64,000 bases of DNA from Candidatus Woesebacteria bacterium (GTDB lineage: Bacteria; Patescibacteriota; Microgenomatia; UBA8517), in NCBI GenBank assembly GCA_016432365.1, contig CP066686.1, positions 64,355 through 128,354 on the forward strand, read 5' to 3'. Shown in pieces: positions 10,384-63,296 of the stretch. Made by a program: the position numbers and the translations under genes. The stretch's first letter is position 1. Every line of letters begins with the position of its first letter. The notes beneath the pieces are model-generated. The model saw only the letters and a list, made by a program, of their open reading frames with translations. It had not been told where the DNA came from and searched no databases.

Positions 10384-10577
10384 TGGTCTCGGATGGAATC
10401 GAACCATCGTGTCGACTTTATGTTAGTAAATTCTGGTGGAGCCGGATGGAGTCGGACCATCGAATCGACTTTATAAGAGTCGTGGCTTACCGTTAACCTA
10501 CGGCTCCCCAGAATTCACTAACAGTCAAGGCAAAGCCTTGTCATAAGAGTCGTGTCCTACCATTGAACGACGAGACC
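10384..10577 (-). tRNA. Interrupted (split/intron-containing) tRNA whose ~120-nt insert carries the complete tRNA above
   Basis: The 5' half is at 10577..~10543 (acceptor GGTCTCG, D-arm GTTCAATGGTAGGAC, anticodon stem CGACU + CUUAU). The 3' half is at ~10420..10384 (AGUCG, T-arm GATGGTTCGATTCCATC, acceptor CGAGACC complementary to the 5' half, discriminator A). The insert has a CAAGGC-TTT-GCCTTG hairpin and 13-bp inverted repeats (TGTTAGTGAATTC / GAATTTACTAACA) flanking the inner tRNA. Confidence 0.5.
10434..10507 (-). tRNA. tRNA with UAU anticodon (tRNA-Ile reading AUA), complete, CCA encoded
   Basis: Minus-strand cloverleaf: acceptor GGAGCCG/CGGCTCC, D-arm GGTTAACGGTAAGCC, anticodon arm CGACU-CUUAUAA-AGUCG, T-arm GATGGTCCGACTCCATC (T-loop TCCGACT, non-canonical at position 55), 3' ACCA. 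Confidence 0.65.
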
Positions 10578-53333: not shown

Positions 53334-55223
53334 ATGGCAAATCCTCGTTTTAATGGCGTCAGGCCACCGTCTCGACCTGTCAGATTACCGCTTCCGACAG
53401 AAGCTGCGCAGCCACAGCGAAACCAGCGCCCCCCGCTTCGACCAGCTTTTGTGGCCGGTATTGTGTTCGTCGTGTTGTGCCTGCTCGTGAGCTCAGTCGG
53501 CTCGTACATTTGGTTTAACCGACCGAGTCAGCCAACCGAGCCTACCCCGACAGGACAGTCAGGTGGATTTGAACAGCCTACATCGGTCTTCGTTCCCGGT
53601 TCTTCGCCGACCCAAATCGCGATTCCTACTGGACCAAAAGCGCCAGTCACGATTGGATTTGTTTACTATGTCGGATATTACGAAGTGCCCTTGATGGCGC
53701 GCCTGAACAATCCCTACTATCAGGCAGTTCCTGTTCCGTTCGAATTCCAGGCAGAAGAAAACGGTGCGATACTGACTAAGGGTTCCGAATCCGAACAAAT
53801 CGAGATGCTTCGCAACGGCGAGATCGACATCTTGCTTACAACCAGCGATGTACTGGCCAGATACCCGACCATCGGAAAAGGTGTTGTCGTTTGGGATCGT
53901 AGCCATGGTGTTGACCAAATTTGGCTTTCGAATAATGGTCGCACACAAAGCTGTGCCGGACGCCCACTCAAAATCTTTAACGATCTTGGTGCAAAATACG
54001 ACACGAGCGGCGCCATGATGCAATCGCCCTGCGTTATAGCAGTGGTATTCAACTCTGTAAGCGAATACTACGCCCTGAGCTACACCAAAATCACCGGTAT
54101 GACCAAAAACGACATTACCTTCGCTTACTACGATACAGCGGCAGAAGCTGTAGCTGCTTTCAACAATGGCGAAGCCGATGCCGTTGCTTGTTGGGAACCT
54201 GACTGCCAAAGTGCCAACGATGGCAAATCTTTTAAACTGACAAGCACCATTGACCTGCACACGATTTATGACGTCATCTTGGTTTCACGTCAAGCCGACC
54301 AAAACAAGAAACCGTTGGTAATCGAAGCTTTGGCCGACCTCTTTGCTGTACGCAACATGTTCCTTGCAGACCCAGAAGGTACGGCAGAACTTGTTGCTCA
54401 GTGGCAATTCACGGCGCCGACGGAACCTACCAGTTGGTGGCTTGGCCCAACAGACGGTGCCACCTACTCTACAAACTGGTGGACTGGTGTCTCCTCCGGT
54501 ACGGCCTACGATGATATGCAGTACTGGGGCTTGGGTGGAATTGCGCAGGCTAAGTTTGACCACAACCTTGTTTATCTTTCAAGTCCTGATCTGTGGTGGG
54601 ATAACCTTGAACTTGAACGCAAAGTCTGGGAATGGGGCGGCGCACAACTGGAAACACCATTCGATCCTAAAACAATGGTTGATACGTCTTACTTGCAAGC
54701 GCTTTCCGGTCGCAAAAATCTGTATGCGCCCAAAGGCATGTCTTTCTTAGACAACACCTTCTCACCGTTCCCGCCCGAGGCGGCACTGCTACCGGAGACA
54801 ACTCGTGTTATTGCCGAATATGCATGTCCAAATGTATTTTTTGGCCCTAACGCAACCACCATCCCTCAAGGAAGTGTGCAACAACCGAATCCTCAATACG
54901 TGGCCTTTGTCGACTGTGTCAAAACATTGATTCAGGTCATGAATGAGGCCGATGTCCGTATTGAGATCGTCGGTTCTGCCGCTAACCCTGATCCAGCGAT
55001 CTTTGGATCACTCTACGCTCATTGCGGCGAGCTCACGGATGACGACTACTGTTTGAAAATCGCAAAAGGGCGAGCAAATTGGGCCTGGAACGAGCTTGTG
55101 AATCTGAGTTTTGATATGACTCGCGTCACGATGTCTACCGAAGTTGGACCACGCACAAGCAGTCAAAGTGTGATGTCCGACAGCCGGTTCATCATTATCA
55201 GAATCCTGGCTGCAGGTTCCTAA
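53334..55223 (+). CDS. Membrane-anchored protein with an NMT1/SsuA-type substrate-binding-like domain plus a large C-terminal domain; GC-rich, first gene of the island
   Basis: It has a strong SD (AAAGGAGAAAGAAAATG), a Pro-rich N-terminus with a TM helix, then IGFVYYVGYYEVPLMARL...GEIDILLTTSDVLA (SBP-like). GC is ~55% against a ~38% background. Confidence 0.5.
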   Translation: MANPRFNGVRPPSRPVRLPLPTEAAQPQRNQRPPLRPAFVAGIVFVVLCLLVSSVGSYIWFNRPSQPTEPTPTGQSGGFEQPTSVFVPGSSPTQIAIPTGPKAPVTIGFVYYVGYYEVPLMARLNNPYYQAVPVPFEFQAEENGAILTKGSESEQIEMLRNGEIDILLTTSDVLARYPTIGKGVVVWDRSHGVDQIWLSNNGRTQSCAGRPLKIFNDLGAKYDTSGAMMQSPCVIAVVFNSVSEYYALSYTKITGMTKNDITFAYYDTAAEAVAAFNNGEADAVACWEPDCQSANDGKSFKLTSTIDLHTIYDVILVSRQADQNKKPLVIEALADLFAVRNMFLADPEGTAELVAQWQFTAPTEPTSWWLGPTDGATYSTNWWTGVSSGTAYDDMQYWGLGGIAQAKFDHNLVYLSSPDLWWDNLELERKVWEWGGAQLETPFDPKTMVDTSYLQALSGRKNLYAPKGMSFLDNTFSPFPPEAALLPETTRVIAEYACPNVFFGPNATTIPQGSVQQPNPQYVAFVDCVKTLIQVMNEADVRIEIVGSAANPDPAIFGSLYAHCGELTDDDYCLKIAKGRANWAWNELVNLSFDMTRVTMSTEVGPRTSSQSVMSDSRFIIIRILAAGS

Positions 55224-55309: not shown

Positions 55310-56101
55310 TTATTCTCGCCTTCCGTTAGCAAAACTTTCACTGGCCTCATCGTAAAATCTCTGAATAAGATACCTCAACTGAACCAGATTTAAGTAAGCA
55401 ATCCTGTCGGATGGATTGGCAATTTTTCCACGGCCATCTGCGCTGTCTCCAATTTTGTTTAACTCTGCGTCCGCAATTGCATTAGTTACCAGATCAGAAT
55501 ACCCCTTTTGATCAGCCACGTTTTGTTTTTCATCTATTTCCGAAAGAGCATTAATAACTTTTAGCAAAAAACTCCTATAAGCCAGTTCGTTTGAAGGGTT
55601 ACCTGCGGGATCAAAAAGAATTATGCTAAGCCTCTGACTTTCCGATTGCGGAATTATCAAACTGTATGACTCCGACTCCCCGCTTCCCCAATTTATCTGC
55701 TTTTCAAGAATTGCCTTTAGTAAATCGAGTTCTTCAACCTCAATAATCTCTATTTCTCCACTGGTATTTACACAAGCCAACGAAAGCACATCCTCACTAA
55801 ATTGATTACCGTTATCCCGATTGTCTATAGGCCTCGACATTTCAGTAAAATCGAAAGCTACCGGAGTGAATGAAAGCTCCTCAGTCGTTAAAGTCAAGGG
55901 TTGCGGGTCTACCCCTCTTTCCATTTCCCCCGCATTTGAAGTTAGTAGTCTCCTATTTGTGACCACGGTAGGATACCCGGCTTCGTCCCATCCAAAATGA
56001 AGAATTTGACCACGACCTCCCCTTCCAGCTACCTGGACAAGACCGAAAACATAATTTAGTTGTCTATTAGGCTGCCTAGTCTCAATTTCAATGTTTGCCA
56101 T
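55310..56101 (-). CDS. Hypothetical protein (263 aa), last gene of the minus-strand island operon
   Basis: An unassigned ORF with moderate GC and no SD. Confidence 0.4.
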   Translation of the reverse strand: MANIEIETRQPNRQLNYVFGLVQVAGRGGRGQILHFGWDEAGYPTVVTNRRLLTSNAGEMERGVDPQPLTLTTEELSFTPVAFDFTEMSRPIDNRDNGNQFSEDVLSLACVNTSGEIEIIEVEELDLLKAILEKQINWGSGESESYSLIIPQSESQRLSIILFDPAGNPSNELAYRSFLLKVINALSEIDEKQNVADQKGYSDLVTNAIADAELNKIGDSADGRGKIANPSDRIAYLNLVQLRYLIQRFYDEASESFANGRRE

Positions 56102-56183: not shown

Positions 56184-57158
56184 CTATCCTTTATACCCCC
56201 GGGCATACTCATCGGCCTCGGCCAGCGTCGAGCGAACCGACTGATACTTCGCAACTTCCGCCGCAAACTTCTCCACCTCAGCCTGGGCAACTCCCTTGAT
56301 GGTTGCGGAATTCCCAATCTGATTGGCGGCAAGCGCATTGGCGCCGTAAAGCATGTTCTGAATTCGTTCCACGTTCCAGGTCATGTTTGCCAACTGCTTT
56401 AGAACCGCGTCAGGATCGCCGAGCTTGGCCTCCAGTTGTTCCATGAACGTGAGTTGTTTCAAGAGAAGAACAACATCCTCAGACTTCATGTCGAGAACAG
56501 GCAAGGTCGCCCAATCCAGAACAACCGGTGATTCGGCAGGAGCCGCGTAAGCGATCTTGCGGAATGCCGAACCGAGCTTGCCGCGCCAATAGGCAATTCC
56601 TGTTTCCGCGACCGGACGGGACTGCTCTTCCTTCCACAAATCGACAACCCTGATAACAGGCGGGTTTTTTGTCAGATCGTTGAAGAAATCGAACTGCCCG
56701 GCTACACGGTCTTGAATCTTCTGCGCCGGCGCTTGTGCGAGATCCTGTTCGTCAAACTCGGCCTTTGCAATGCGGTCAAGCTCCTCGAATGCCTCAGGAT
56801 TCATCTCCCGCGTGGTGCGCTTCGAGATTCTGTCCGCGAGTTCCATTCCCTGGTTAGCCACAACCACCAAACAATCAGCAATGGCTTTTTGCACCGAGGA
56901 AGGGGTCACGCCGTCGATCGACGCTTGCATCATTGTAAACGCCAGATCAACATCCAGTCCCAATCTGTTATTGGTGAGCAGGATGGCTGCAAGACGAACC
57001 TTACCCATGATCATTTTGAGATTGGGCACGTCCGCCACCCAGGCTTTTACCAGATCTTCTGCATCCAAAACCTGCGGTCCGGTTGCGGAAACTGGCTCGG
57101 CTACAGCCTGAACGGGCACCGCCGTGCCAGGTTTTTCGTCCTTACTTTTTGGGGTCAT
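56184..57158 (-). CDS. Hypothetical protein (324 aa), GC-rich, downstream of the E1 gene
   Basis: It has a strong SD (AAAAGGAGAAAACAATG) and no recognisable motifs. Confidence 0.45.
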   Translation of the reverse strand: MTPKSKDEKPGTAVPVQAVAEPVSATGPQVLDAEDLVKAWVADVPNLKMIMGKVRLAAILLTNNRLGLDVDLAFTMMQASIDGVTPSSVQKAIADCLVVVANQGMELADRISKRTTREMNPEAFEELDRIAKAEFDEQDLAQAPAQKIQDRVAGQFDFFNDLTKNPPVIRVVDLWKEEQSRPVAETGIAYWRGKLGSAFRKIAYAAPAESPVVLDWATLPVLDMKSEDVVLLLKQLTFMEQLEAKLGDPDAVLKQLANMTWNVERIQNMLYGANALAANQIGNSATIKGVAQAEVEKFAAEVAKYQSVRSTLAEADEYARGYKG

Positions 57159-57394
57159 TGTTTTCTCCTTTTAATCCAAAAGTATTGGTTTGAAACGACA
57201 AAGAGCGATTTGTGATAAAAATCACAAGCTTTTAGTAACCCAGGGAGTTTATAGGATAAAAGAAGAAAAATCAACTATGGGTTGAGGGTTTTTGCCAAAA
57301 AAAAGGTGGTACTGTTTTCTGAAATTAATCAGTAACAGTACCACCTGTCGTGCTAAGTCTCCAGACTAAACTGGATCATCCATATCGTGCGAAA

Positions 57395-57715
57395 TTACTC
57401 GCTGCGCTCTTCGCCTTCTTCAGTGGCCGCAAATTCCGTCTTTTTGACGGCAGCAGCAACTTGGCCGGGCTCGGGCTCAGGAGCGGACTCGGTGGGGGCA
57501 TCTTTGAAGGTCAAAGTGACCTTTTTGCCGCCATCAGGCTGATCTTCGAACTGGCATCCCGTGACGGCCGCCAACAGATCAATGCTCTCAGCAGTGATGT
57601 CGGGCATATCCTTCGGCGTCCAATTGACGACACCGTTTTCGTCGGCCTTGGCGAACAGGGCTTCCCATGTGGCAGCAGGGCCACCGGTCAAATTACCAGG
57701 CATGCGTGTGTTCAT
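57395..57715 (-). CDS. Hypothetical acidic protein (106 aa), GC-rich, immediately downstream of the E1 gene
   Basis: It has a strong SD (AAGGAGAAAAAAATG) and a Glu/Pro-rich C-terminus. Confidence 0.4.
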   Translation of the reverse strand: MNTRMPGNLTGGPAATWEALFAKADENGVVNWTPKDMPDITAESIDLLAAVTGCQFEDQPDGGKKVTLTFKDAPTESAPEPEPGQVAAAVKKTEFAATEEGEERSE

Positions 57716-57732
57716 TTTTTTCTCCTTGTGAA

Positions 57733-58665
57733 TCAGATGTTGGATGCGCTTGTAACATCATGCGTATGCGCAGTGCATTCGCTCCACCTTTCAAGCGCTA
57801 GAGGAAAGGTAGAATTCCGGATGAGGAGCGGAAACCGCCCATTTTCTTCCGGACCAAACATCATTGTCCTCTGCATCGAAAGCTTCGACTGCAGGGCAAT
57901 GTATTCGGAAAGTTCTCTCATGATATCCCCCTGGCGGAGCCTTCGAACTTCAACCCAGTCCTGGAAAGCGATCATCAAAACTGTAGGGTCGATTTTCTTG
58001 GTCGTGGCTACCACGTCCATGACGCTCATTGCCATCCAGTCGGCAATTATACCAACCGGGGCGCCCAAAGACGGAACAGCCTGCGGGGCTCCTTCAGGAC
58101 TACGAAACTGAGTCGGATCAAACCCGTAGTTTTGATCGGCCGGATGACCGGAATACTCCAAGTTTCCCAACGCTCCTTGTGCGCAGACAAAACATACTTT
58201 ATCGGGATGTGGCAAAGTAACAACCTGGCCGCCTTTCCCTTGAGCATATACAGAGCCGACAATCATCGGAATATTATGCTTCTCGCACCAGGCGCTGATC
58301 CTGTATTTAACGTCCTCGTCATCTACAGAGACAATTGCAGCGGCTGCGTCGGTGTGTTCCTCAAAGATCGCTTCGGCATCACCAACGTGGGCAATAACTT
58401 TCTCACCCGGTACGCCGTGCTCGATAAGGGTTTCCCGACAGCCGATTGCTTTGGGCTTACCGATCCACGATTCGTCCAACCAGTGTCTCTCGATGTTCTC
58501 GACTTTCAGGTTTTTAGGGTCAGCAATTACGATTTGTCGCCACCACGGGTAGGCAAGTTTTGACATCGCCCAACTGCCGACACTTCCCGCGCCCCAAAAA
58601 ACCAGCTTCGAAGCTTTGACTTTACTCAAGTCATAGACATTCGGAAATCGTGCCGGTCCGTTCAT
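57733..58665 (-). CDS. ThiF/MoeB-type E1-like ubiquitin-activating enzyme homolog (BilD-like)
   Basis: It has the Rossmann motif LVFWGAGSVGSWAMSKLA...IVIADPKNLKVENIERH (the GxGxxG...D...N[LI]xR[QH] pattern of ThiF/E1) and a CxxC pair (VCFVCAQG). The start overlaps the JAB gene stop (ATGA). Confidence 0.75.
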   Translation of the reverse strand: MNGPARFPNVYDLSKVKASKLVFWGAGSVGSWAMSKLAYPWWRQIVIADPKNLKVENIERHWLDESWIGKPKAIGCRETLIEHGVPGEKVIAHVGDAEAIFEEHTDAAAAIVSVDDEDVKYRISAWCEKHNIPMIVGSVYAQGKGGQVVTLPHPDKVCFVCAQGALGNLEYSGHPADQNYGFDPTQFRSPEGAPQAVPSLGAPVGIIADWMAMSVMDVVATTKKIDPTVLMIAFQDWVEVRRLRQGDIMRELSEYIALQSKLSMQRTMMFGPEENGRFPLLIRNSTFPLALERWSECTAHTHDVTSASNI

Positions 58666-59621
58666 AACTCACCTCTTGCTTCAAGTTTGAATATGGCCTC
58701 GATCAAATCCTCGCCGGGACTCCACAAAGGGCCTTCTAACAGCCTTTTTGAATTATAGTCACCTTGCTCGGTAGCTGATTTGCCTTCTAAGGCGTCTACG
58801 CTAAACTTTGGTGCCGCCTCGGGATAGTTCCAGGGTGTAACAATGTACAAAGTTCCACGCCAGACTTTTTCTTTTGTGACTTTAAAAACTATCTCCTGTG
58901 GCGGACCATCGCGAACATCGCGATATGAGACTTCAACTTCGGCGCCATAGTTAGTGATGTGCCTTAACTGCTCAAAATAGTCAGCGTCATTTGTAAATTG
59001 CCATCCCAAAGGAGGCAACATTGGCGCAGACTTGGCTTCAATGATGGTCGGGGTGACTGTAATGGGTTCGGTGATACCCATAGCCGCCATGGCTTTTGAG
59101 TAATAATAAAACACGATCCGAACCCTGGTGAACTCATTTACATCGACATAACCGGAGGTAGCCTTAAATTTCCAGTCTCCCGGGTTTAGAATTAAAACGA
59201 GAGGTCCTACAGCAACTTCCAACCCGTCTACGTTGATTGCATCCTTGATGGATTGTATATCAGTTCCGCTGTATTGGTTGAAATTCAAAGTGTGGTGGCT
59301 GTGCCCTTTATAAAGATACGCACACTTTCCACCTGGTTTTGAACCGAGTTTTTTTCGAAAAAGACCCTCGTTGGCGGTTAACCATATAAGCGCCTCTTTC
59401 TGACCGTCACCACCAAATGCAAGTTTGGCGTATCCTTTTTCAATATCTTCAGGGATCGGTTGGATAATATGAGTAACAATCACCGACTGGTGATCGTCCA
59501 TTATCACACCCCATAAACCGAAACCCGTTTCAATCGCAGGATTGGCTAAAACCTCGTTTACCATGGCGATAGCAGCACCTTTGGTCACTAAAATTCGCGG
59601 CCGTTTGGCTGTAATTTCCAT
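58662..59621 (-). CDS. JAB/MPN (JAMM) metallopeptidase, deubiquitinase-like, with a ~170-aa C-terminal domain (BilC-like)
   Basis: It has the JAMM motif: a Glu (IETGFGLWG), then HSHHTLNFNQYSGTD matching H-x-H-x(7-10)-S-x-x-D. It has a strong SD. Confidence 0.75.
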   Translation of the reverse strand: MEITAKRPRILVTKGAAIAMVNEVLANPAIETGFGLWGVIMDDHQSVIVTHIIQPIPEDIEKGYAKLAFGGDGQKEALIWLTANEGLFRKKLGSKPGGKCAYLYKGHSHHTLNFNQYSGTDIQSIKDAINVDGLEVAVGPLVLILNPGDWKFKATSGYVDVNEFTRVRIVFYYYSKAMAAMGITEPITVTPTIIEAKSAPMLPPLGWQFTNDADYFEQLRHITNYGAEVEVSYRDVRDGPPQEIVFKVTKEKVWRGTLYIVTPWNYPEAAPKFSVDALEGKSATEQGDYNSKRLLEGPLWSPGEDLIEAIFKLEARGEL

Positions 59622-59630
59622 TTTTCCTCC

Positions 59631-60215
59631 TTACCAGCCGTGCTTATCGTAGTGCCATACAGCCCAATCGAAAAAGGCCTGCATGAAACTGATTATGGTA
59701 TCGCGGCCCTTGACCCAGTCGTCCGAATCGGCAAAAAAGCATACCCACCCGTTTTCATACATGTGGTTTGAATGCATATCGCCGTCAAAGCGTTTGTAAC
59801 GTGGGTCGTCTATCCGAACGTGTGGCGGCTTATACGGCCACCTAGGGTCAAATCTGATCTCGACCCATTTGTCGATAAGAAGTTCGGGCGGGCGAGGTTG
59901 GCGCCTAAGTTGGGGTCTGTCCCTGAAAACCCGCATTTTGAACTGCAACAGCGGCTGCGGTTCACCATCAACTTGGACAAAATCTCCCCATTTGAATTGG
60001 TCAACATAAACCTGTAAACCTGCGTCCTTGTAAATTCTGGGAACACCGGTTCCGTTCTCTTCCCCTACAACCTTGGTTTTTTTTAAATAAAACCAATCCC
60101 TTATCGACTTGATCACGGCTGCATAGGAATAAAGGGGGTCGCCTTTGGTAAAGTTGGCCCGCGCTTTTTTAGGATCCCAAGATCCTGGAAAATCTGTAAA
60201 CCAGTTGGTTGTCAT
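59631..60215 (-). CDS. Ubiquitin-conjugating E2-like enzyme (UBC fold; BilB-like)
   Basis: It has IRFDPRWPYKPPHVRI...HSNHMYENGWVCFF, which matches the canonical UBC signature FPxxYPFKPPKVxF...HPNIxxxGxICL with the catalytic Cys. It has a strong SD. Confidence 0.75.
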   Translation of the reverse strand: MTTNWFTDFPGSWDPKKARANFTKGDPLYSYAAVIKSIRDWFYLKKTKVVGEENGTGVPRIYKDAGLQVYVDQFKWGDFVQVDGEPQPLLQFKMRVFRDRPQLRRQPRPPELLIDKWVEIRFDPRWPYKPPHVRIDDPRYKRFDGDMHSNHMYENGWVCFFADSDDWVKGRDTIISFMQAFFDWAVWHYDKHGW

Positions 60216-60230
60216 ATTCTCCTCGCTTTT

Positions 60231-60806
60231 TTAGATATCGTTCATTGATACTGTAACATCCGCCGTCCGTTGAATTCTGGCGTTGGCTCTTAAAGTCCCA
60301 TCGGGGTTAAGATTGCCAACAATTGATCCTACTGTCGGAACTATTGTGAGTTCGAAGGATGTTAGTTTGAAATACTTGGAACTCCCCAAAAAATCCGAAA
60401 TGGTAGATTTCTTTACTACTCCTAAAACTTTTTTGCCAAAAAGAACGGCTGATGCTTCCACTGTCCAAAGTCCGGCCATATCGTCACCGCGAGAATATTG
60501 GGTTAAATCTGCTACATCTTTGGCGGTGAAAAGCAGTTTACTGTCAGCTCTCTTTGCGAGTCTTGAAGTGTGAATCTGCCGACCGTCCTTAAGTGTGGTA
60601 AATTTTATGCCCAAAAAAACTACCGATTGGGGAAGAGGGCTAAGTTCAACCTGTAAGACAGGCTGGAAAGCGAAAACTCCCTTAATCGTTTCCAGGTCGA
60701 TTTCCAGAAAGTTCGTAACTTTGCCGGAAAGCGCCTTGTTAATCTGGCTGGGCGTATCCAAAACGTTGATTCCAAAAAAGGTTGGGTTAATTCTGAGGTC
60801 TGTCAT
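60231..60806 (-). CDS. First gene of the E2/JAB/E1 operon, in the position of the Ubl/BilA component; Ubl identity unverified
   Basis: It is 191 aa with a strong SD (AAGGAGGAGTAAATG) and sits immediately upstream of the E2. There is no C-terminal Gly-Gly (it ends ...SMNDI), so it may be a pro-form or a different component. Confidence 0.35.
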   Translation of the reverse strand: MTDLRINPTFFGINVLDTPSQINKALSGKVTNFLEIDLETIKGVFAFQPVLQVELSPLPQSVVFLGIKFTTLKDGRQIHTSRLAKRADSKLLFTAKDVADLTQYSRGDDMAGLWTVEASAVLFGKKVLGVVKKSTISDFLGSSKYFKLTSFELTIVPTVGSIVGNLNPDGTLRANARIQRTADVTVSMNDI

Positions 60807-60956
60807 TTACTCCTCCTTTCTTCGGAGTTTTTAGATATGGATGATGTTAACGAACAAGATAACGAAGAGCGATTCTACCACAACCCTCCTGTAGGAGTCA
60901 ATATTATGGGCCAGATTAAAAATGCCTTTTTTGCTCATTTAGGTTAAAATATTTAA

Positions 60957-62165
60957 ATGCCCGAGCGCCTTGCCTATCAAAGCGAAAACCATGAGTCGAC
61001 CAAATACGGAGAGGCTCTAACAATAGTGAGTGCCCCTTTTGGAAAACCTGTAAATAACGAAGAACTTTTAGCCCTAGCGCTTGATCTGGGCTTGCCTGTT
61101 AAAGAGATGGAAAATGCCAGGCATGCAATTACAGCAACCGGTTTCACCAACCGTTTCTCGAGTAATCCCCCTGAAGAGGAACCAAACACAGATTTGGCAA
61201 TCAAAGGCAGCATTGAAAACGGGGCCAAACTTCTTACAGAAATTATGAAAAGTCATGGGTGGACAGACGGAATAGACGTTTTTATAGACACGTCCGCGTT
61301 TCTCCCAAATTCTATCAATAAAGAAATTTTAGCCCTGGCCGGATTAAACCCTGACCACGTTGTTTCAAAATCTTACCGATACGCCTGTGCCGGGGCAGTT
61401 GGAGCCTTTATCGACTGCCTATCAGATCCGGCTCTTAAAAACACGCGTATTGTGATCGCCGCACTTGAACCACTAAGTTATGTCATAGACAAGTCCCATT
61501 TTCACTCCCCCAAATCAATTTCTATACCTGCCATATTCGGAGATGCAAACACCCTAATTGCTTTTACTCCGAATCGATTTCACCTGGATGTCAAACAAAT
61601 ATTAATCCAGCCTGACCACGGTGTAATAAAACTTAATACTCTCTACGATTTTGGTCAGATGCCTTCAAACCCTGCATCCACACCTTCACATTACCGATTT
61701 GGAGAAGGTGGTGAGTCCATCTTCCGATACTCAGAAAGTGGAGCCTATCTTAAAATTGAATCCCCCGGACAGGGAGCGTCGCTTTCAATGGATGGTATGG
61801 CCACAGGTTTTTTCTTTGGAGACCAAACAGCCTCAGTTATTACCGATCTTATTTTAGAACATGGTGACACGGACATTTTAAGAAAACTAAACGGAAAAAA
61901 TATTATTATGCACTCGGCTAGTAAACCGGTCGTAGACCGCATAGCCAAACTTTTACGTAGAAGTGAACATCGATTTTTAGATACTCCCGAACTTCCTTTT
62001 CTAATGGATAAAGCCAGACAATCAAATGGGAGTAGTGCCACGACCCTAAACAGATGGCAGTATATGATTAAAAACAACATGATGGATGCGGATTTACCAA
62101 TGCTTTGGATTGCACCCGGAATAGGGTCAGCCATCGCCGGAGCTATCGGTACAATTAACCCCTGA
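60957..62165 (+). CDS. Thiolase-fold condensing-enzyme-like protein (FabH/KAS III-like)
   Basis: It has YRYACAGAV (Cys nucleophile region) and MHSASKPV (His); length is 402 aa. The assignment is tentative. Confidence 0.4.
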   Translation: MPERLAYQSENHESTKYGEALTIVSAPFGKPVNNEELLALALDLGLPVKEMENARHAITATGFTNRFSSNPPEEEPNTDLAIKGSIENGAKLLTEIMKSHGWTDGIDVFIDTSAFLPNSINKEILALAGLNPDHVVSKSYRYACAGAVGAFIDCLSDPALKNTRIVIAALEPLSYVIDKSHFHSPKSISIPAIFGDANTLIAFTPNRFHLDVKQILIQPDHGVIKLNTLYDFGQMPSNPASTPSHYRFGEGGESIFRYSESGAYLKIESPGQGASLSMDGMATGFFFGDQTASVITDLILEHGDTDILRKLNGKNIIMHSASKPVVDRIAKLLRRSEHRFLDTPELPFLMDKARQSNGSSATTLNRWQYMIKNNMMDADLPMLWIAPGIGSAIAGAIGTINP

Positions 62166-62204: not shown

Positions 62205-63296
62205 ATGGTTGAAAATCTCAAAGCCAGGGGAACAGGGGTTATGCTCCCCCACGGTGGTCTGCCAGAAGTCCTTCCACCTTATTTAGTAAAATTAATTTCT
62301 GAGACAGGTGGTCCGGAAGGTCCGATCGGGCTTCAATTTGTAGCCAGACCCACTCTGGAACTTTCCCAATACGATTACAAAGAAAGTGACCCACTGCTTG
62401 AGGATTTCAACGAAGTATCTCCAGGGCTTGTTTATAAATATCGGGCAGGAAAAGATTCTGAAGGTCACTCTTATGCTGGAAGGGCTTTGTTTACAATAAC
62501 CCGCAACTGCGCAGCCTATTGTAGATACTGCACACGAGGAAGAGAGGTTGGAATCCCTGCAAATCAACAGGGCGAACTTTCCGGGACGTTGTCGCACACG
62601 CCACATCTTTCCAAAGAGCAAATCGATCAATCTCTCGAATTTATCCGAAATGAGTATGGTTTAAATGAAGTTATTCTTTCAGGTGGAGACCCCCTTACTG
62701 TTAGGCCTGAAGTTCTAAGCTATGTAACCGAAAAACTCGGAGAAATGCAAAGAGAAGGGAAACTTAGTATCGTAAGAATTGGAACACGGGTCCCAATCCA
62801 CAACCCACTTCTTATTAAGGAAGCACATTTTGAAGCACTCAAAAAGTTAAGAAACCCTCGCTTTATGATTCATGCTAATCATATCCTCGAATTAACCCCA
62901 GAAGCCCTTTCGGTTTTACAAAGGCTTAGAAAAGACTGTAACGGAGTTGTCATGAGCCAAACCGTACTTCTAAAGGGAGTAAATGATAATGTGGAAGTTT
63001 TATATAACCTCTTTACCAAGTGGGCTGAGGAGGGGTTTATCCCCTATTATGTCTTTCAAAATGATGCTGTCTCTTGGGCCAAGCATTTCACTGTTCCAAT
63101 TCAAGATGCAATTTCCCTTTGGCAAAAAATGCGTCCAAGGCTTTCAGGAGTAGCCGCAACTGCGCGTTTTGTGATTGACGTTGAAAGCGGATACGGAAAA
63201 GTGGCAGTTCCTGAAGCTGGGGCATGGAATATAATTTTTTCTGACGGGTTTAGAGACTTTAAGGGAACAAGGTTTGACCTTGGAGTTGCTGAATGA
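62205..63296 (+). CDS. KamA-family radical SAM protein (lysine 2,3-aminomutase/EpmB-like)
   Basis: It has the [11 protein letters not shown] CxxxCxxC radical-SAM motif in the KamA arrangement; length is 363 aa. Confidence 0.75.

Follow-up and report, generated by a model that had tools for sequence, protein, structure and literature searches.

A window of 64,000 nucleotides from the genome of a Candidatus Woesebacteria bacterium carries, on its minus strand, an operon of five genes (60806..57395) which encode, in this order, a protein of predicted immunoglobulin-like fold (A), an E2 (protein B), a JAB protein (C), an E1 (D) and a small protein with a conserved tail motif (E). Operon positions are those of this window, all five genes share the minus strand, and the evidence throughout is computational. 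A first-pass annotation of the DNA had described the first four reading frames, which are indeed present with lengths of 191, 194, 319 and 310 amino acids, and had read them as a ubiquitination operon akin to the Bil anti-phage systems in a low-GC host resembling the candidate phyla radiation (CPR); the host, a Woesebacteria metagenome-assembled genome, is of that kind. We lean towards a different reading, in which the five genes form a self-contained ubiquitination-like protein-conjugation operon and represent a hitherto undescribed family, most of whose members come from the CPR (Patescibacteria).

The genes are closely packed, with intergenic gaps of 9–17 nt and, at the junction of the JAB and E1 genes, the 4-nt ATGA overlap noted at first pass. 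The strong Shine–Dalgarno sequences reported for A, E2, JAB and E1 are likewise there, and gene E, which starts 17 nt past the E1 stop codon, has one of its own. The operon is bounded by a promoter-like site at its 5' end, the only one on the minus strand within the 150-nt gap upstream of gene A, and by a strong terminator at its 3' end, for which none of 200 shuffled sequences was equally stable (Table 1). Taken together, the Shine–Dalgarno sites, short gaps, overlap, promoter-like site and terminator after E argue for a single transcription unit.

Table 1. Features of the five-gene operon, listed from 5' to 3' along the minus strand (nt, nucleotides; aa, amino acids)
Feature	Position	Strand	Basis
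Promoter-like site	60872..60901	-	TTGACT, 18 nt, TAGAAT, with TG; 10/12 consensus matches; consensus match alone
Gene A, 191 aa	60231..60806	-	Predicted Ig-like beta-sandwich and disordered tail
E2, 194 aa, UBC fold	59631..60215	-	Family profile, invariant Cys
JAB protein (protein C), whole, 319 aa	58662..59621	-	
Predicted JAB/JAMM metallopeptidase domain, protein C residues 1-195	59037..59621	-	Motifs, weak profile matches
C-terminal domain of protein C, residues 196-319	58662..59036	-	hhalign, hidden Markov model, weak RWD matches
E1 (protein D), 310 aa	57733..58665	-	Pfam ThiF 2.5e-16
Gene E, 106 aa, candidate modifier	57395..57715	-	Synteny, conserved tail motif
Intrinsic terminator	57296..57346	-	13-bp stem then U8; -25.5 kcal/mol, z -7.6

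A, B and C were concatenated into a single query and their relatives sought exhaustively with HMMER in a set of 1.84 billion representative proteins (E ≤ 0.001). This search returned 140 proteins in total: about 75 related to C, 54 to B and 11 to A. The A, E2 and JAB families are small and have no curated model. Genomic context was fetched for relatives of JAB protein C and the loci annotated with family hidden Markov models (HMMs), related loci being searched with a 12-sequence alignment. Every complete related locus has the order A, E2 (in one to four copies), JAB, E1, E, and gene E follows E1 in all loci that reach that far. An all-against-all comparison of open reading frames (ORFs) found only these five families common to the loci as a whole, with unrelated flanks on either side. 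The hosts are mostly Woesebacteria and Saccharibacteria/Saccharimonadales, which belong to the CPR. Relatives of gene E were located through synteny and then fetched by exact look-up; in a word-indexed protein collection, the window E2 and the window E each retrieved itself alone. Viral contigs searched for relatives of the JAB protein yielded none, PHROGs held no match for A, E2, JAB or E, and single-sequence searches of solved structures with A, JAB and E gave no matches.

The E1 matches Pfam ThiF (PF00899) at 2.5e-16, scoring 60 bits against a gathering cut-off of 28.1, and its best PADLOC matches are the E1 part of the CBASS Cap2 models (3e-14). Among solved structures, its family profile finds UBA5 (2.6e-16) and MccB (6.5e-16), then ThiF and MoeB, with Cap2 at 2e-8 and PaaA also matched; no Bil protein appears at E ≤ 0.001. 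The nucleotide-binding loop and CxxC that had been picked out by eye prove invariant in an alignment of 13 orthologues (GxGSxGS and CxxC), together with NxERH, K72 and D115, the corresponding residues in the window being G25-A-G-S-V-G-S, N57-I-E-R-H, K72 and D115. C158xxC161 and C297xxH300 make up a zinc site. The crossover loop (residues 162-195) contains a cysteine in none of the 13 orthologues, its invariant residues being G167 and Y180 (codon at 58126..58128), and in three orthologues the three zinc-site cysteines are the only cysteines present. By its sequence, the E1 is a single-domain, minimal ThiF/UBA5-like adenylating enzyme with no catalytic cysteine available to it. The E1 of the Bub system likewise has no cysteine in its crossover loop, where the sole invariant residue, a tyrosine, forms an oxyester (PMC11601596); Tyr180 shares this pattern, and by analogy it may have a catalytic role.

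The window E2 taken alone has no match in Pfam, NCBIfam or PHROGs and matches the PADLOC E2 and Cap2 models weakly (best 4.9e-5), so that its assignment comes from the family as a whole. The family profile matches 158 solved UBC E2 chains (best 7e-4) and nothing else of note, in alignments that cover both the FPxxYPxxPP flap and the catalytic cysteine, and individual members match Prok-E2_B (10), RWD (9), UQ_con (6) and UEV (6). The UBC signature quoted in the first-pass annotation is present, with the flap F-D-P-R-W-P-Y-K-P-P and with H148-S-N-H151 replacing HPN, and P131, C159 and W167 are invariant in 47 homologues. We place the protein in the UBC superfamily, with C159 (59739..59741) as its putative catalytic cysteine.

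Protein C, on its own, also has no Pfam, NCBIfam or PHROGs match and matches the PADLOC JAB model weakly (0.004). The JAMM motif with an upstream glutamate that had been recognised in it is nonetheless shared by the family: E31, H107, S108, H109, S118 and D121 are invariant in 36 homologues, three of which match Prok-JAB (best 6e-4), and distant relatives have the canonical HKHPG...SGGD. The N-terminal domain is, from these motifs, a predicted JAMM/JAB metallopeptidase. The Pfam profiles that had been proposed as a check on the three enzymes gave a divided answer, with ThiF above its cut-off for the E1 but Prok-E2_B, UQ_con and Prok-JAB reached through other family members and not through the window proteins.

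The last 124 residues of protein C form a separate, conserved domain, so that the unassigned region is nearer 120 residues than the approximately 170 first given for it. It contains a W-[DN]-[YF]-P-x-x-x-P-x-F segment (W-N-Y-P-E-A-A-P-K-F in the window) and the invariant residues W207, P267 and W300, and has no conserved Cys or His. Compared with the E2 family by hhalign, it aligns over the flap (E 1.2e-4, probability 56%); E2 paralogues from one related locus (L021) match its HMM at 5e-5 and 3e-6, and a few of its members match RWD weakly. Its profile gave sub-threshold E2 matches among noise, and nothing more, when compared with solved structures. The domain is probably an inactive fold of the UBC/RWD/UEV type. 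In a 630-aa JAB protein at L021:2599-4491 (P0050), the RWD-like domain occurs twice and the N-terminus contains a membrane segment.

Gene E was overlooked in the first-pass annotation, which placed the ubiquitin-like (Ubl) component at the first gene. Across 11 aligned E proteins, F95 and A96 do not vary, and K91, four residues before F95 and preceded by two alanines, is nearly invariant; F-A is present in all 13 E proteins read, with the consensus end A-A-A-K-P-H-x-F-A. In the window protein this motif reads A-A-A-V-K-K-T-E-F-A (residues 87-96, 57428..57457) and is followed by a 10-residue extension, ATEEGEERSE; across the family the extension past F-A comprises 0-10 unrelated residues, and 4 of the 13 proteins stop exactly at F-A. 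One locus (L009:2109-2729) encodes a head-to-tail E-E fusion, in which ...KPHRFA of the first copy is joined directly to SHKPDH of the second, itself ending in KPHRFAQGEES. The two 90-aa repeats are identical in protein sequence, while 26 of their 270 nucleotides differ, all synonymously, which rules out an assembly artefact and indicates that both copies are under strong purifying selection, a situation known from polyubiquitin genes. The E proteins of three loci (L012, L013 and L021) are shorter (74-89 aa), rich in proline, glycine and acidic residues and disordered in appearance, with the tail motif alone kept. For the window E, AlphaFold2 gives an alpha-beta-alpha-beta-beta domain at residues 12-67 and a disordered acidic tail (pLDDT 61), and no Pfam family matches the protein. 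We considered an internal A-A-V-G-G as a processing site and rejected it: T-G takes its place in the window protein, it is missing from the short E proteins, and the model puts it at the end of a helix.

In Bil and Bub, the Ubl is made with up to nine variable residues past a conserved glycine, and the JAB removes this extension (PMC10557695, PMC11601596). Gene E carries the same precursor signature, a conserved residue followed by a variable extension, together with a tandem head-to-tail gene; its cleavage and conjugation are putative. Type II CBASS conjugates a protein that does not have the beta-grasp fold and whose last residue is Gly or Ala; when this residue is Val, Ser, Arg or Trp, conjugation is lost (PMC10097602). 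Judged by this requirement, the alanine terminus of a trimmed E would be workable and the isoleucine terminus of A would be unlikely to be activated. The conserved F-A with its variable extension, the tandem fusion and the alanine terminus argue that E, rather than A, is the probable modifier of the system.

Gene A had been suspected of not being a beta-grasp protein, and structure prediction agrees. An AlphaFold2 model built with 11 homologues (pLDDT 82, pTM 0.78) shows a beta-sandwich at residues 1-156 and a disordered tail at 157-191, and the protein ends in V-S-M-N-D-I, with no variable extension past the isoleucine. It is thus predicted to be an Ig-like beta-sandwich and not a Ubl. A kinship of A with phage structural proteins found no support, a fold search of BFVD with A returning no match at E ≤ 0.001. 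The tail of A has a counterpart in the E1: these two unrelated proteins share a C-terminal motif, [VIL]-S-x-[DEN]-[DE]-I, which runs from position -6 to the isoleucine at -1 and in which the x, at -4, is aliphatic or small. The terminal isoleucine is found in 12 of 14 A and 12 of 13 E1 sequences, and the E1 of the window ends in T-S-A-S-N-I. UBA5 recruits its E2 through a short C-terminal peptide and has no ubiquitin-fold domain. By analogy with this tail, those of A and E1 might dock in turn on one surface, most simply that of the E2.

Several related loci depart from the common plan. An 8-kb contig holds two complete cassettes in tandem (L007:114-7270), and the second A gene of this pair is truncated to 159 aa and does not have the C-terminal tail. 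Gene E at L006:9881-10195 (the same as L011) is split into ORFs of 39 and 53 aa, by a frameshift or a sequencing error. In the three loci with short E proteins, one additional gene, common to them alone, lies directly after E on the opposite strand and convergent with it (L012:9187-10479, L013:9210-10733, L021:5766-7112); its product (430-507 aa) has an N-terminal membrane helix and a long helical region, with 21-24% identity among the three (E 1e-9 to 1e-12), and it may be a sixth component of this multi-E2, short-E subfamily. A short contig (L020:3-2927) represents a distant branch, with a canonical JAMM motif (HKHPG...SGGD) and a shorter E1 ending in ...SELL.

We infer from the above a pathway in which E is made as a precursor, and the JAB would trim it right after the invariant ...K-x-x-x-F-A and would split E-E fusions at the same site, in each case exposing a C-terminal alanine. 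The minimal ThiF/UBA5-like E1, acting as a homodimer, would adenylate this alanine; since the E1 has no free cysteine, the adenylated E would then either react directly with Cys159 of the E2 or reach it via an oxyester on Tyr180 of the E1. The E2 would pass E on to amino groups of targets, and the JAB could also reverse the conjugation, its inactive UBC/RWD-like domain helping to hold E or E2. Protein A would be a dedicated target or a substrate adaptor, taking turns with the E1 at a single docking site, most likely on the E2. If this is right, the cassette would stand for a new prokaryotic branch centred on the CPR, in which a small, largely disordered modifier, Pup-like in form rather than a beta-grasp and with Phe-Ala at its end, is trimmed from a precursor or poly-E and conjugated by E1 and E2 enzymes, passing from a Cys-less E1 to a Cys E2 either directly or via a tyrosine oxyester, with an Ig-like partner that shares the docking motif of the E1; on this wider placement we find belief and doubt about evenly matched.

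A number of observations weigh against the reading of the five genes as a conjugation operon with E as its modifier. To our knowledge, a C-terminal Phe-Ala is unprecedented for a modifier of E1/E2 systems, CD-NTases excepted. The order of elements in the N-terminal domain of E is not that of a beta-grasp, confidence in the model is too low to name a fold, and the protein has no homology to known modifiers. Because the window protein has no Pfam match, the assignment of the JAB comes from motifs and weak profile matches, and its family profile found no solved JAB among solved structures; the RWD-like assignment of its C-terminal domain is, at the hhalign probability given above, borderline. In the distant branch on L020, the E1 gene is followed by an 84-aa ORF without the F-A motif, and the modifier there may differ from E. 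Finally, A could equally well be the activated protein, as the CD-NTase is in CBASS, the role that we give it being a guess.

The closest of the competing explanations is that of a Bil-type system (BilABCD), in which A, as a highly divergent Ubl or its pro-form, would be joined via its C-terminus to phage proteins and E would be accessory or regulatory. The first gene, E2, JAB and E1 follow one another as in bilABCD (PMC10557695), the flexible C-terminal tail of A is long and its last residues are sharply conserved, and the conjugation of a protein other than a beta-grasp has a precedent in CBASS (PMC10097602). However, A is confidently predicted as an Ig-like sandwich, and it ends in isoleucine without a variable extension, bulky or branched C-terminal residues being those that abolish activation in CBASS. 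Its tail motif also ends the E1, as would be expected of a docking motif more than of a site of conjugation; the signature of a precursor, with its tandem fusion, is in E, not in A; and the E1 does not have the IAD and CYS domains or the catalytic cysteine that define BilD. We consider this explanation unlikely. The first-pass assignment to the Bil-like systems finds no support in the E1 architecture or the modifier; what survives of the bilABCD comparison is the E2-JAB-E1 order and the E2 cysteine, the first gene not being a Ubl.

Two further explanations take the E1 out of protein conjugation altogether. That E is the precursor of a ribosomally synthesized and post-translationally modified peptide (RiPP), adenylated and chemically modified at its C-terminus by a MccB/PaaA-like E1 and matured by the JAB as protease into a small-molecule product, draws on the E1 profile, which matches MccB (6.5e-16) nearly as well as UBA5 (2.6e-16) and PaaA too, and on the nature of E, small, largely disordered and conserved in its C-terminal motif only. 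It does not readily accommodate an E2 with an invariant catalytic cysteine that is always present, in up to four copies, or a second UBC-like domain fused to the JAB; the cassette is not consistently accompanied by an exporter, an immunity gene or additional tailoring enzymes, and a motif at the end of the mature part with variable residues after it is the arrangement of a Ubl precursor. We regard a RiPP-like pathway as quite improbable. Still less credible is a sulfur-carrier, cofactor (MoeB/ThiF) or tRNA-modification pathway, with the E1 activating a carrier for thiocarboxylate formation: the E1 does match ThiF, MoeB, TcdA and SAMP-E1 models, but far under their curated cut-offs (e.g. 48.8 against 275 bits for TIGR02356), the E2 and JAB genes are always present, and neither the cassette nor its conserved neighbours include MoaD/ThiS, MoaE, ThiG, rhodanese or cysteine desulfurase genes. 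The first-pass preference for conjugation over sulfur transfer, which had turned on MoaD/ThiS, MoaE or ThiG being found nearby, is borne out by their absence from those genes.

A role of the proposed conjugation operon in conflict or defence is plausible. Its distribution is patchy and its flanks unrelated, and, as the first-pass annotation had it, it sits on a stretch of foreign GC content (48.4% in the cassette against 40.8% in the remaining window). Features that would fit defence also include the two to four E2 copies that accompany a single E1 and E, the toxin-antitoxin genes beside the cassette in two loci and the tandem cassettes of L007. Against this, the support is circumstantial, consisting of toxin-antitoxin neighbours, E2 expansion and a GC-rich, patchy distribution. 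The neighbouring genes match no CD-NTase or other PADLOC defence model, in line with the earlier statement that this is not a type II CBASS.

No repeats were found flanking the GC-rich stretch, and the region yielded no Rfam family. Two orphan genes without family matches lie directly beyond the 3' end of the operon (F and G; 56184-57158, 324 aa, and 55310-56101, 263 aa, both on the minus strand), which we considered as members of the system and rejected, as they have no relatives beside any other cassette and the strong terminator stands between them and E. The first of them has a cassette-like GC content of 54%, from which the foreign stretch may be larger than the operon. Farther downstream, a 629-aa protein with a proline-rich N-terminus is encoded at 53334-55223 (+; 51% GC), part of which resembles an SsuA-type substrate-binding protein (NCBIfam 5e-10, far under cut-off). 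On the other side, and divergent from gene A, is a gene for a 402-aa protein without family match (60957-62165, +), followed by one for a KamA-type radical SAM aminomutase-like protein (62205-63296, +; TIGR03822 2.7e-55, under cut-off); neither is conserved with the cassette. Elsewhere in the window is a tRNA-Ile gene with the anticodon UAU (10434-10507, -). Few bacteria have this tRNA; in most, AUA is decoded by a CAU tRNA modified with lysidine.

A full-text literature search, in which journals were covered in part, found no paper describing such a system in CPR bacteria. If the proposed reading is true, E1/E2/JAB machinery can serve a dedicated modifier without the beta-grasp fold, and the enzymology of ubiquitination would be separable from the ubiquitin fold. 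The operon would also provide a second, independent E1 without a catalytic cysteine, here paired with a Cys E2, and would extend such systems to the reduced genomes of the CPR, which keep few accessory systems. The family is compact, with five genes in about 3.5 kb, and its one to four E2 copies alongside a single E1 and a single modifier would make it a natural system in which to study how an E2 chooses its targets without an E3.

Protein conjugation has been demonstrated for three bacterial families with ubiquitination-type enzymes, namely type II CBASS, Bil and Bub, and each changed views on the origin of ubiquitination chemistry. With Bil, compared here by its described architecture and gene order, the cassette shares separate E2, JAB and E1 genes in one order, an E2 with a catalytic cysteine and the lack of an E3. 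The Bil modifier is a JAB-trimmed precursor with a conserved residue and a short variable extension (PMC10557695), a pattern which E repeats. In contrast, BilA is a beta-grasp protein that ends in Gly and is encoded first, whereas here the first gene is predicted to be Ig-like and the candidate modifier comes last, is not recognisable as a beta-grasp and would end in Phe-Ala. BilD is a multidomain IAD-AAD-CYS E1 with its catalytic cysteine on a mobile CYS domain (PMC10557695), where the present E1 is a single 310-aa ThiF domain without one, and the JAB here has an additional RWD-like domain. With type II CBASS, the cassette has in common the Cap2 models as best PADLOC matches of both E1 and E2, a JAB to reverse the reaction, and a conjugated protein that is not a beta-grasp and has a Gly or Ala end (PMC10097602); it differs in having no CD-NTase and no effector, in its separate E1 and E2, which Cap2 joins in one protein, and in a candidate modifier that is a small dedicated protein and not an enzyme. 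Bub offers the same minimal, homodimer-type E1 with an invariant tyrosine in a crossover loop without cysteine (PMC11601596), and a JAB that processes the modifier. The Bub E2, however, uses serine where the E2 here has an invariant cysteine, and the cassette has no beta-grasp Ubls, no Ubl-E2 or JAB-E1 fusions and no DUF6527 protease (BubE), its proteins having no match to DUF6527 (PF20137) in Pfam. The cysteine in place of serine and the missing DUF6527 protein also set it apart from the 6E-type operons with which it had been aligned at first pass.

Outside these bacterial families, the UBA5-UFC1-UFM1 pathway supplies the best solved relative of the E1 and, in the tail of UBA5, a model for the conserved C-terminal tail here, with the differences that UBA5 has a catalytic cysteine in its crossover loop and UFM1 is a beta-grasp protein ending in Gly; the binding of tail to E2 that we suggest follows by analogy. 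Pup, too, is a small disordered modifier recognised via its C-terminal part, and the short E proteins of L012, L013 and L021 look alike, but it is ligated via the side chain of a C-terminal Glu by the glutamine-synthetase-like PafA/Dop, without E1, E2 or JAB. It shares no sequence similarity with E, the cassette contains no PafA/Dop ligase gene, and E ends in FA as against GGQ/GGE in Pup, so that the likeness is limited to disorder. MccB, the second-best solved relative of the E1, and PaaA have the ThiF fold and act on short peptides without structure, whose C-terminus they activate, but they work without an E2 or JAB and make small-molecule antibiotics. Iyer and colleagues listed operon types 6a-6e, to which the current names 6A-MBL, type II CBASS, type II Bil, type I Bil and Bub correspond in turn. 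The cassette described here fits none of these types; it shares the logic of Bil, CBASS and Bub, and with Bub an E1 that has no catalytic cysteine.

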